Positions 1,842-5,684 of a DNA stretch of 64,000 nt are shown in pieces. Both the position numbers and the translations under genes were made by a program. The stretch is from Escherichia coli (lineage in GTDB: Bacteria; Pseudomonadota; Gammaproteobacteria; Enterobacterales; Enterobacteriaceae): the NCBI RefSeq assembly GCF_030013595.1, contig NZ_CP122768.1, one strand, 5' to 3'. Under the pieces are notes generated by a model. It made no database searches, was not told the DNA's origin, and saw only the letters and a program-made list of their open reading frames with translations. Every line of letters starts with the position of its first letter. Within the stretch, counting starts at the first letter, position 1.

Positions 1842-2261
1842 TCAACAAAAACTGGCCACCGAGTTAGAGTTTTTCCAGTATCGATTTTCCGATTCGTTTG
1901 GGGGTAACCCACCGTTATATTCGTGCGGTCTTAGTGCGCTATAATATCCAACGATATAGTCCGGCGTGAGCTGCCTCGCTGAAGCTTACGTAACCCACCA
2001 CCGGCATCCATTCGTTCTTCAGACTCCTGAAGAAGCGTTCCATTGGGCTGTTATCCCAGCAGTTTCCGCGCCGGCTCATACTCTGCCTGATCTGGTATCG
2101 CCACAATAACTGCTGGAACTGCCTGCTCGTATAATGACTGCCCTGTCGCTGTGGAACATCACCCCACCGGGCTTACCACGGGTTTCCTATGCCATTTCCA
2201 GCGCTTTCATGGTGAGCCTGCTGTCCGGCGAGAACGACATGGCCCAGCCCACTGGTTTTCT
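1842..2261 (-). mobile_element. IS3-family transposase orfB 3' fragment, frameshifted and 5'-truncated by the adjacent IS66-type element
   Basis: Minus-strand translation gives ...VMFHSDR... and ...[36 protein letters not shown]... / ...[27 protein letters not shown]... in shifting frames (DDE IS3-family orfB); stop at 1842-1844. Confidence 0.6.
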
Positions 2262-2448
2262 GTAAGCGTCGTCTGAGTACCGTCTGGTCCCGAATCCAGG
2301 ATCCTGTAACTTAAGCACCCACTTATTTTGCAGGTGGACACCTCATGCGCACCAAAGAACGACTCCCCCGGAAACGCTATTCTCCTGAATTTAAAATGGA
2401 ACTGGTCAGGCTGGCCCTTGAACAAGATATCACGAACGGTGCAATAGT

Positions 2449-4171
2449 GGTTCTTCCGCAACTTGGGTGGAAGAAAATGGATGAAACTTTCTGGTGAACA
2501 AGGATCTAAGCTGTTTTAAGTTATGGGCAACGCAATGCACTCTCTTAAGACACTTCTACAGTTACCTTGCGGATGGCGATGCAGTCGACAAATTATTAGC
2601 TCTGACGGTATCACCCTCCATCTCCACGGAAAACGCAAAACAGCACAATGTCCTGAATGCTCTAAGCGTAGCGACTCTGTTCATAGTTCTCGTCGGCGCC
2701 GGATACAGCATCTACCCTGCTCCGGGCAGACGCTATGGCTTGTATTTTCCGTCCGCCACTGGTACTGCCGTAACCCGGCTTGTTCACGTAAAATTTTTGC
2801 CGAGTCGCTTGCTCCCTTCGCCGGTTCACACCAGCAGTCTTCACAGGCGTTACAAAATTTACAACGTCAACTGGGATTAATAGCTGGAGGTGAGGCTGGA
2901 AAACGGGCTGCAACGGCAGCGGGTCTCCGTTGCAGTGCTGATACTCTTCTTCGCAGGGTTATCAATACCCCGGAGACGAAACAGTCAGGCGCGCCTCATG
3001 TCGGTATTGATGAGTGGGCGTGGCATCGGGGCCACTGCTGCGGTATGTTAATAGTCAATCTTGATACTCACCGTCCCCTCGTCCTGCTTCCCGGCCGTGA
3101 TCAGCGTACGCTGGCGACCTGGTTCAGAAAATATCCGGAAATACAGGTTGTCTCGCGTGATCGCAGTGGAGTCTATGCGACAGCAGCACGTGAAGGTGCA
3201 CCTCAGGCCAGACAGGTGGCCGATCGATGGCACCTGCTAAAAAATATTGGTGATGAGCCTGAACGAATGATGTACAGACATATACCTCTGATACGTCTTG
3301 TTGCCAGTGAGTTGTCACCAAAGAAATCACCTGAGCCAGAACTGTCTGTGCCTGCAGCATCGCTCCGTCGTCCGGAACGCCTTAAACAGCAAACCCGCAA
3401 AAAACGGCATCAGCGTTGGACAGAGGTTATGGCCCTGCATAACAAGGGATGTAGTTTCAGGGAAATATCCCGTATTACAGGCCTGTCGCGTGTGACAGTC
3501 AGTCGCTGAGTACGTTCAGGAACATTCCCTGAAATGTCAACCCGACCTCCAAAGCGAGGGCTTTTGGACCCATGGAGGGAGTGGTTAAAAGAGCAACGAG
3601 AAAGTGGGAATTATAACGCCAGCCGGATAATGGCGGGAAATGGTGGTCCGGGGGTTTACAGGCAGTGAAACCATTGTCAGGGATACTGTTGCCAAATGGC
3701 GTAAAGGCTGGATCCCACCGGTTACTACTGCCGTCAGACTTCCTTCAGTGTCCCGGGTAAGGCGCTGGTTGATGCCCTGGAGAATAATCAGGGATGAAGA
3801 AAATTATGCTTCCCGATTTATTAGTCTGATGTGTGAAAAAGAACCGGAGCTGAAAATAGCGCAGCAACTGGTACTCGAGTTCTACCGTATTCTGAAAACC
3901 CAAAATAAATCACAGCTTAGCAGCTGGTTCACTCGAGTCCACGAAAGCGGTTCAGCAGAACTTCGGCGCGTGGCTGCGGGGATGGAAGCTGATGCTGCGG
4001 CTATATGTGAGGCAATCAGCAGTCGCTGGAGTAATGGTGTTGTCGAAGGTCATGTAAATCGCCTGAAGATGTTGAAACGCCAGATGTATGGTCGAGCCGG
4101 ATTTGAACTGCTCAGGCAGAGGGTCATGAGTCCACTGGCATGAAAATCTCCACCCAAGTTGCGGAAGAACC
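2449..4171 (+). mobile_element. ISL3-family insertion sequence with ~24-bp terminal inverted repeats, nested inside the IS66 orfA
   Basis: Left end ggttcttccgcaacttgggtggaag (2449-2473) is the reverse complement of the right end ctccacccaagttgcggaagaacc (4148-4171); the transposase reading frames lie between. Confidence 0.7.
2523..4143 (+). pseudogene. ISL3-family transposase, disrupted (at least two frame changes between 3509 and 3640)
   Basis: N-terminal zinc-finger-like CPEC...C..PAC, central GIDEWAWHRGHCCGMLIVNLD...VSRDRSGVY...VADRWHLLKN, C-terminal SNGVVEGHVNRLKMLKRQMYGRAGFELLRQR split across ORFs 2523..3509 and 3640..4143. Confidence 0.65.
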
Positions 4172-4498
4172 ACTTTTCATCCGTCGTTGACACAAGAGGG
4201 CAGTATCGCTGCTCTGGCCCGTCAACATGACGTCAACGATAATCTGCTCTTTAAATGGATAAGGCTCTAGCAACGTGAAGGGCGGGCGGGTCTGTCGACC
4301 CCGAAAAAATGCATCGTCGCTTCCTGCCCTGATACCCGTGCAACTTCAGGCGGAGCCTTCTCTCCCGGCATTCGAACCACCATCCTGTTCACCTACCACT
4401 GCCTGCCACATAAAATGTCGGGGCGGAGAAATAACACTGACCTCTCCCTCAGTTGAGCTTATGAGCACTGTCCTGCGCGAACTGATGCGGGGGTCTGT

Positions 4499-4864
4499 AT
4501 GATAAATCTTCCCGCAGGCACAAAAATCTGGCTGGTTGCCGGTATCACCGATATGCGCAACGGCTTCAATGGTCTCGCCGCAAAGGTGCAGACAGCGTTG
4601 AAAGATGACCCGATGTCCGGCCACGTCTTCATCTTCCGGGGCCGCAGCGGCAGTCAGGTCAAACTGCTGTGGTCCACCGGCGACGGACTGTGCCTGCTGA
4701 CCAAAAGGCTGGAGCGTGGCCGCTTCGCCTGGCCGTCGACCCGCGATGGCAAAGTGTTCCTGACGCCGGCGCAGCTGGCGATGCTGATGGAAGGTATCGA
4801 CTGGCGACAGCCAAAGCGGTTACTGACGTCCCTGACATGTTGTAGCCCAGGTCTTCTTCGTTGA
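4499..4864 (+). CDS. IS66-family orfB (TnpB-like accessory protein)
   Basis: MINLPAGTKIWLVAGITDMRNGFNGLAAKVQ...FIFRGRSGSQVKLLW...DGLCLLTKRLERGRFAWP matches the conserved IS66 Orf2 family. Confidence 0.75.
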   Translation: MINLPAGTKIWLVAGITDMRNGFNGLAAKVQTALKDDPMSGHVFIFRGRSGSQVKLLWSTGDGLCLLTKRLERGRFAWPSTRDGKVFLTPAQLAMLMEGIDWRQPKRLLTSLTCCSPGLLR

Positions 4865-5684
4865 TAAAGTTCACATCCAGAGGATGGATACTTCCTGTAG
4901 CCCGTAATATCGTCGGTTCAATATCCTGCACATTCATCGGGATCACCGATGCAAGAAAAGCCCATTGATCAGAATAAGGCTGGAAATTAATATCAACAAA
5001 AACGCTTCCCCCCGATGCACGCGGTCTTTTTTGCAGAGGTAACGCGATAAGATTACCAAATCCTCCTTTTGGCATAGTATCCTGATTAGGAAATAATCGG
5101 TCATAAGAACTCAATTGCAGCTGTCGGGTCCGGCTGCACGTATAGCTAATAATAGCAGTCCCCAGACGGCGAGCTTCGCGGGCCGAAACTCGTGAAGCAA
5201 AAAATATCCAGACATGCGCTCCCTGACGTGAGCGGGATATTTCCAGCGCAGCAGGTACACTCAGCTCATCACAGGCTCGCATGAACGCGGATGCATCCTT
5301 CTGCCATTCAGCTTTATCAAAATCAACAGCCAGAAAATAACAGGAATCATCTTCCAGCAACGGATATAACCCGGCAGTATGCGTGCCTGCCAGATGCTGG
5401 TAGATGACAAGATCAGATACAGGGAGTAACTGACGGTGCGTACAGTCCCCGCATTTTATCCGGGGTTTACCGCATATTCTCGCCTGCCATTCGTTAGCGC
5501 AGGCAGGAGAGTACCCTGATTTGCCGCTGGTTTTACTTTCCCAACGAAGGGCCCATATATCATCACGCCCACGAAACAACCGACGAAATAATGCAACCTT
5601 CTCGTCGGTGGATAATACGGAAACGCGCTGCACAGGGCTCGGCGGTTTACGTCGCCATTCCAAGTAATGAGACCAGACGGGCAT
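4850..5684 (-). pseudogene. archaeo-eukaryotic-type primase-polymerase-like protein, N-terminal fragment; C-terminus replaced by the IS66 remnant (boundary approximate)
   Basis: ORF 4659..5684 contains DxD-like YFLAVDFDKAEW and sGxH-like SRQGAHVWIFF motifs plus Cys cluster CGKPRIKCGDC; its last ~60 codons are antisense to IS66 orfB, so the gene is truncated near 4850. Confidence 0.35.

Follow-up and report, generated by a model that had tools for sequence, protein, structure and literature searches.

A 64,000-nucleotide (nt) stretch of Escherichia coli contig NZ_CP122768.1 (assembly GCF_030013595.1), hereafter the window, contains three insertion sequences (ISs) nested within one another between positions 1834 and 4846, and the nest ends against a truncated primase-helicase gene. 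An IS911 fragment of the IS3 family is interrupted by an IS66-family element, the tnpA gene of the latter is interrupted by an ISEc38-like element of the ISL3 family, and the interior of the IS66-family element is joined to codon 301 of the primase-helicase gene. The region very probably preserves a layered record of past transpositions and deletions, situated where the core of a genomic island at thrW meets its cargo. The identities of the elements, the three junctions, the outcome of the excision test, the lesions in the reading frames and the distribution among genomes were observed directly, and no component of the nest is now able to move on its own.

The nest is real but ordinary: all three elements belong to well-known IS families, and nested or truncated ISs at island boundaries are commonplace. 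Only two points are mildly unusual, namely the end architecture of the ISEc38-like element together with its target duplication of 5 base pairs (bp), and the fact that the primase-helicase gene has been truncated repeatedly, at differing points, in related islands. A preliminary description of the region had listed four components within 1842–5684. All four were recovered near these limits, with matches well above chance, but the IS3-family fragment starts at 1834 and the primase pseudogene at 5733, and position 5684 is an internal ATG past a 14-nt deletion in that pseudogene.

Structure of the nested insertion sequences

The outermost layer is a right-hand fragment of IS911 (1834–2261, minus strand, 428 bp) with 97% identity to annotated IS911 copies. 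It corresponds to IS911 positions 1–434, counted from the right tip of an element of approximately 1248 bp, and comprises the right terminal repeat and the 3′ part of orfB. The tip of the terminal repeat, TGAAGTGG at 1835 (TGAAGTGGTCAACAAAAACTGGCCACC from 1835), aligns with the annotated IS911 end. An open reading frame (ORF) at 1939–2106 matched the NCBIfam model transpos_IS3 with E = 3.8e-14, as a fragment under the whole-protein cut-off, and the orfB piece matched Pfam rve_3 with 27.6 bits (cut-off 26.5), a DDE (rve) transposase. The window copy differs from IS911 in keeping only positions 1–434 and in carrying two frame-breaking deletions, of 5 nt after 1962 and of 1 nt at 2145; the orfA half and the left end of this copy, which would complete the orfA-orfB arrangement with programmed -1 frameshift and the short target duplication of the IS3 family, have been deleted from the window. 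In strain CFS3292, the cargo and the IS911 junction are arranged as in the window, and IS911 is present at its full length of approximately 1248 bp, continuing beyond the point at which the window switches to IS66. The CFS3292 IS911 is the state preceding the IS66 insertion. That copy (L012 9275–14016) is interrupted by a group II intron (ltrA) and IS30 and abuts a partial IS66-family tnpC, and the nest of CFS3292 at the corresponding place is even deeper than that of the window.

The second layer is an IS66-family element in two parts, both on the plus strand. The first part (2262–2427) contains the left terminal repeat GTAAGCG, tnpA codons 1–27 and two bases of codon 28 (ATG at 2345), and it aligns from its left tip with the IS66 copies at comparison loci L003 (98.8%) and L004 (94.6%). 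The second part (4193–4846) contains the remainder of tnpA and tnpB (ATG at 4499). The sequence at 2262, GTAAGCGTCGTCTGAG, recurs unchanged as the left tip of the copies at L003, L004 and L019, all of which have both ends, and in the window this tip stands directly against IS911 position 434 at 2261/2262. A genuine IS end lies against the interior of IS911, and the IS66-family element therefore transposed into IS911, in agreement with the earlier view that an IS3-family orfB fragment had been cut at a GTAAGCG end. The predicted 8-bp IS66 target duplication at the IS911 site is GGTTTTCT, of which the right-end copy was lost with the deletion.

The match to IS66 copies goes no further than 4846, where the tnpB stop codon ends; neither tnpC nor the right terminal repeat is present. 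Because of this absence the element is a truncated family member rather than a member of a different family, and the claim that it lacks its transposase held against copies that retain tnpC. The TnpB product was strongly supported (Pfam E = 2e-38; NCBIfam 119 bits, cut-off 50), and TnpA gave a weak profile match (E = 0.0016). The closest relatives are 2437-bp elements of strains 1105 and ECONIH5, with which the window copy has the GTAAGCG tip and overlapping tnpA and tnpB in common, and from which it differs in lacking tnpC and the right end; the copy of strain 1105 is 98% identical and has both ends and a tnpC that is itself frameshifted. ISEc8 of O157:H7 is a more distant member whose tnpB is 88% identical to that of the window. 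Lesions were found in both remaining genes: tnpA has a TGG to TAG change at 4268–4270 and a 4-nt insertion (GGGC) at 4280–4283, and a 1-nt deletion near 4835 of tnpB shifts its last three codons and stop, so that the ORF extends to 4864.

The third layer is an ISEc38-like element of the ISL3 family (2428–4192, plus strand, 1765 bp), identified by profile matches, DNA identity and the excision test. Its DNA is approximately 96% identical to copies listed in RefSeq under the name 'ISL3-like element ISEc38 family transposase'. The transposase gene (2523–4143) lies in two pieces, 2523–3509 and 3640–4143, which matched NCBIfam transpos_ISL3 with 245.5 bits (cut-off 180) and 114 bits, respectively; Pfam DDE_Tnp_ISL3 and Zn_ribbon_ISL3 also matched. 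The insertion point is codon 28 of IS66 tnpA. When 2428–4197 was removed, tnpA aligned gap-free at the cut with uninterrupted IS66 copies, and the mobile unit is therefore 2428–4192 with a 5-bp duplication, CAAGA, at 2423–2427 on the left and 4193–4197 on the right; uninterrupted IS66 reads CTTGAACAAGAGGGCAG at this place. Both the interruption of the IS66 orfA and the presence of a target-site duplication, for which the preliminary description had recommended a search, were thereby borne out.

The terminal repeats of the ISL3 element are 46 bp long and imperfect, and they contain a perfect 25-bp core (2447–2471 and 4149–4173). Intact inverted repeats of about 24 bp had been proposed; a perfect pair does exist, but its length is 25 bp and it lies inside the longer repeats of the 2428–4192 unit. 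The tips are TGTCA and TGACA, the left one mutated to TATCA, and repeat detection in the window returned an inverted repeat of 36 nt at 89% in which the outer arms run on into the core. Relative to ISEc38, the window copy is dead because of a stop codon and a frameshift, and its unit is defined by the 1765-bp length, the 46-bp imperfect repeats and the 5-bp duplication.

To the right, the nest abuts a pseudogene of a fusion between a primase-polymerase (PrimPol, archaeo-eukaryotic primase) and an SF2 helicase (4847–5733, minus strand), which retains codons 1–301 of 786 but not the helicase half. The comparison with an uninterrupted gene was made with the intact homologue of O157:H7 (786 amino acids), which has an AEP-TOTE domain at 49–277 and an XPB/RadD-like SF2 helicase at 423–738 and matched the PADLOC PrimPol model with E = 2.5e-147. 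A tblastn search with this protein gave 92% identity over residues 26–301 and 100% over residues 1–24 in another frame; the change of frame stems from the loss of 14 nt after codon 24 (between 5660 and 5661). The primase domain of the pseudogene matched Pfam AEP-TOTE PF22548 with E = 7e-100 over 228 of 230 profile positions and DNA_primase_S with E = 2e-8. The IS66-family element thus stands against a C-terminally truncated primase-polymerase-like gene, as had been recognised.

In a three-way comparison, homology to the O157:H7 primase gene starts at 4846/4847, where homology to tnpC-retaining IS66 copies stops. The IS66 sequence ...TTGTAGC is joined to the primase sequence ...CCAGGTC with one ambiguous C, that is, with one nucleotide of microhomology, and the join lies approximately 1.6 kb short of the right terminal repeat of the 2437-bp IS66 copies. 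Since the join lies in the interior of IS66 and not at a terminal repeat, it would have been made by a deletion with almost no microhomology, and 4846/4847 is best regarded, from sequence comparison, as a deletion scar and not a transposon end.

Proposed history

The nesting sets the order IS911, IS66, ISL3. An IS911 copy would first have stood beside the cargo; an IS66-family element would then have entered its orfB at 434/435, and the ISEc38-like element would have entered codon 28 of the IS66 tnpA with a 5-bp duplication. A deletion would have taken out tnpC and the right end of IS66 along with the remaining 814 bp of IS911 and any DNA in between; from the primase-helicase gene, 485 codons at the 3′ end, which encode the helicase half, would also have gone. 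Point lesions would subsequently have accumulated in every remaining reading frame. We infer this order of events, and likewise that a deletion made the 4846/4847 junction and that the ISL3 lesions arose by gene conversion; the junctions themselves match related genomes step by step, in keeping with the repeated insertion and deletion suggested earlier.

Several points weigh against this history. No intermediate, with IS66 at IS911 position 434 either without ISL3 or with tnpC, was found in 5,426 complete E. coli genomes, and therefore the ISL3 insertion may have come before or after the deletion. The search for an intermediate used a stitched query of IS66 in IS911 without ISL3, and its sole match was an insertion of the GE3 type 22 bp away, described below. 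The nest no longer has the IS66 right end or the IS911 left end, beside which the second copies of their target duplications would lie. The usual target duplication of the ISL3 family is 8 bp, and the CAAGA duplication is 5 bp; none of the other ISEc38-like copies examined lies in an undisturbed target that would allow duplication lengths to be compared. Finally, the altered tract of the ISL3 transposase could be a polishing artefact of the source assembly.

E. coli GE3 (L019 4710–8070) contains a full-length 2437-bp IS66-family element in IS911 position 456, 22 bp from the site used in the window. Both IS911 flanks are kept there, with a clean 8-bp duplication, AGAACAAC. The GE3 nest consists of the same two families in the same orientation, but its IS66 relative is 92% identical to that of the window, and it has neither the ISL3 element nor the deletion. 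The GE3 insertion is an independent event. Two IS66 insertions 22 bp apart in IS911 may reflect a local target preference of IS66-family elements.

Lesions, element ends and alternative readings

The ISL3 transposase of the window is interrupted by a TGG to TGA change at 3507–3509 and by an extra A at 3629 that produces a +1 frameshift. The frameshift had been noticed before, and the stop codon had been missed. In strain 2022H047, the nearest genome, the transposase is intact at 539 amino acids. The window and this genome differ at 24 positions over 11.9 kb, and 14 of the 24 fall within 287 nt (3509–3795), the stop codon and the extra A among them. This tract is 100% identical to the dead ISL3 copy of other strains; compared with locus L018, the window has zero differences between 3442 and 3847, the largest possible extent of the tract, and many on both flanks. 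From these clustered sequence differences, gene conversion on the plus-strand segment 3509–3795 by a second, dead ISL3 copy probably brought in the stop codon and the frameshift.

The same pattern might have arisen if reads of another ISL3 copy had been mapped here during assembly or polishing. Such an artefact would account for differences confined to approximately 290 nt and matching another ISL3 lineage exactly, and the window has other single-base indels relative to its closest genome, such as that at 8291 in yfjI. However, the 64-kb window contains no second ISL3 copy, and genuine recombination between ISL3 copies is documented in strain ChlosBP-23-1 (see below). An artefact is thus an unlikely origin of the two lesions, although one to be kept in mind, and gene conversion is preferred.

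The ends of the ISEc38-like element allow a bolder proposal, namely that it moves as a 1765-bp unit whose TGTCA...TGACA ends lie 21 nt beyond the canonical GGTTCTTC tips, that it makes a 5-bp duplication and that its arms recombine freely. We advance this proposal tentatively and consider it rather doubtful; if true, such a unit would represent an atypical end architecture for the ISL3 family. The evidence consists of a single insertion with a mutated left tip, and the duplication is 5 bp (CAAGA), which becomes 6 bp when the terminal A is assigned to the target. The 21-nt outer segments, TGTCACGAACGGTGCAATAGT on the left and ACTTTTCATCCGTCGTTGACA on the right, accompany the ISL3 element in six unrelated left-hand contexts. 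Across the window (2428–2448 and 4172–4192) and loci L005, L006, L007, L010, L015 and L018, the outer arms were of two sequence types and occurred as A/B, B/A or A/A relative to the transposase gene, which suggests that the perfect 25-bp inner repeats have been sites of recombination or inversion.

A different explanation of these ends holds that the outer 21 nt are the ends of another, small mobile element that has TG...CA tips, makes a 5-bp duplication and had earlier received a canonical 1723-bp ISEc38, which would add a fourth layer to the nest. The inner repeat begins with GGTTCTTC, like the usual tip of the ISL3 family, the duplication measures 5 bp where 8 would be usual, and the mixed A/B, B/A and A/A arms could be taken in the same sense. 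Against such a shell, no 8-bp direct repeat surrounds the inner repeat, and the inverted repeat runs without a break from the outer arms into the inner core (36 nt, 89%). The arms are present on every copy examined, in all six left-hand contexts; no empty shell was found, although no search aimed at one was made. A fourth layer is therefore quite improbable, and 2428–4192 is treated here as one ISL3 unit.

Ten further ISEc38-like copies from E. coli genomes all lie in rearranged contexts without matching flanks. Five of the ten are instances of one ancient, fixed and dead insertion, which lies between a ggt fragment and a zinc-ribbon gene in most E. coli genomes (e.g. L007, L013 and L014) and may explain why approximately 3,400 of the 5,426 genomes have an ISEc38-like match, with a median of one copy each. 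The inner repeat, searched as 35-nt and 23-nt patterns, had no match in a collection of species-representative genomes. The literature mentioning ISEc38 consists of inventories only, in which the ends and the duplication length are not given.

On the primase side, a chimeric ORF of 341 codons (4659–5684, minus strand; ORF list and Pfam) runs from the internal ATG through the primase domain and ends in a 62-residue tail antisense to IS66 tnpB. This ORF is most likely not a real gene. It could be read as a retained and expressed stand-alone PrimPol domain, since the whole AEP-TOTE domain (ORF residues 28–256) is retained, DFD and GAHVW motifs included, and none of the carriers checked has a broken copy of the ORF. 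These carriers differ by only 0–2 nt over 1161 nt, however, so that conservation is uninformative on selection. The native start has been severed by the 14-nt deletion, the tail is antisense IS66 sequence and the helicase partner domain is gone, and even shorter stumps of the gene in other islands are consistent with decay. Retention of a working domain is accordingly very improbable, and the ORF is regarded as a relic. Origin of the 4846/4847 junction by transposition of IS66 into the primase-helicase gene, which the direct adjacency of the two might suggest, was all but ruled out by the three-way alignment, because the gene is joined to interior IS66 sequence and a transposition join would show ...CGCTTAC or GTAAGCG....

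The primase-helicase gene was kept to different extents (approximately 211, 336 and 889 nt) in different E. coli islands (L016 9023–9233, L017 8997–9332, L018 6012–6222 and window 4847–5733). The cargo beside the stump varies from island to island, examples being a NERD kinase with an AAA protein and a microcin island, and the gene occupies a recurrent cargo-exchange boundary just past the yfjJ-like gene. The primase domain of the intact O157:H7 homologue weakly matched the chains 7nqd and 7nqf, deposited as 'TPR_REGION domain-containing protein'. The AEP-TOTE domain is common to this gene and to CRISPR-associated PrimPol-like proteins; the E. coli domain differs in being fused to an XPB/RadD-like SF2 helicase and in standing alone after the yfjJ-like gene. 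Neither TPR-OB or TBP partner genes nor a CRISPR locus were found near the E. coli primase gene among the window ORFs or in the annotation of the O157:H7 locus. In PMC12458937, citing Aravind et al. 2022, TOTE denotes a conflict system of TPR, OB, TBP and Effector, with TPR-OB (cold-shock domain) and TATA-binding-protein-like (TBP) neighbours. Because such neighbours are missing in both the window and O157:H7, the E. coli gene shares with the TOTE system the effector-type domain family alone and is not such a system. A literature search for a characterised primase-helicase defence gene returned nothing specific.

Continuing recombination

The pieces of the nest still serve as homology, and recombination with other copies has reshuffled the flanks in related strains, as had been anticipated when the elements were described as homologous targets for further rearrangement. 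Three footprints were found, namely a crossover in IS911, the probable conversion tract in ISL3 and a recombinant ISL3 element in ChlosBP-23-1. Within the IS911 fragment, the window has the haplotype of CFS3292 at two left informative sites (1869 and 1890) and that of strain SMS-3-5 at six right sites (2086–2188). This switch fits a crossover by which the nest became linked to its present cargo. Most other carriers, SMS-3-5 among them, are homologous to the window from precisely the IS911 tip (1834) onwards and have different DNA to the left of it, which in SMS-3-5 is a cluster for O-antigen export and glycosyltransferases.

In ChlosBP-23-1, the left flank and the first approximately 650 nt of the ISL3 element come from a copy in a microcin H47 island and the rest from the nest copy. 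The recombinant element has replaced the left half of the nest, that is, IS911, the IS66 left end and the cargo. With two IS copies and three footprints, the region offers a worked example of dead ISs as substrates for recombination.

Genomic setting and distribution

The nest lies in a genomic island at a tRNA-Thr gene (thrW; CGT; 12986–13061), which is followed by proA and proB. Leftwards from the tRNA, the conserved island core consists of an alpA-like regulator, a yfjI-like DUF3987 gene and a yfjJ/yagK-like gene (5888–6451). The nest occupies the junction of this core on the right with variable cargo on the left, and it marks a boundary of cargo swapping between the alpA/yfjI/yfjJ core and a methyltransferase/helicase/GIY-YIG module.

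For segment 1600–5900, 45 complete E. coli genomes gave a match covering 80% or more of the segment, the best being strain 2022H047 (99.7% identity). The identical IS66/primase scar is present in 45 of the 5,426 complete genomes, which originate from pigs, poultry, humans and the environment, and it is therefore not an assembly artefact. In RefSeq, the IS911 fragment, the ISL3 transposase, the IS66 tnpB and the truncated primase gene are already labelled as such in 2022H047 and SMS-3-5, and the interrupted tnpA of the same strains is given as a hypothetical protein. For island annotation, the ORFs of 50 and 341 codons in this region are best treated as chimeric artefacts. This part of the island is inert debris, neither a functional transposon nor a working primase gene, and its significance beyond such bookkeeping is slight.

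Elsewhere in the core, the yfjI-like DUF3987 gene is split into two ORFs (7424–8272 and 8269–8874), because it lacks 1 nt at 8291 that the intact gene of 2022H047 has; this deletion could be a real mutation or a sequencing error. Window positions 10356–12675, beside tRNA-Thr(CGT)/proA, contain no integrase gene, and the two ORFs there (532 and 198 amino acids) had no Pfam match. A search of Rfam returned the tRNA as its only match.

Left of the nest, the cargo consists of a module of three genes that ends at 1613. It encodes a methyltransferase of 928 amino acids (PADLOC type IIG restriction-methyltransferase model, E = 1e-278), a DEAD/DEAH helicase of 681 amino acids and a GIY-YIG/T5orf172 nuclease of 392 amino acids, and it looks like a defence system. 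The module occupies positions 1–1613 of the window and extends upstream in locus L001 (15–6014); it is also present in CFS3292 in another context.

Directly after the stop codon of the GIY-YIG gene begins a further IS remnant that was absent from the preliminary list (1614–1678, plus strand). It consists of an IS911-like left-end terminal repeat and adjoining hairpin, with 88% identity over 66 nt to the IS911 left end (L011 2548–2484), and the same sequence occurs in CFS3292. The remnant shares its orientation with the IS911 right end at 1834, from which it is separated by 155 nt (1679–1833).

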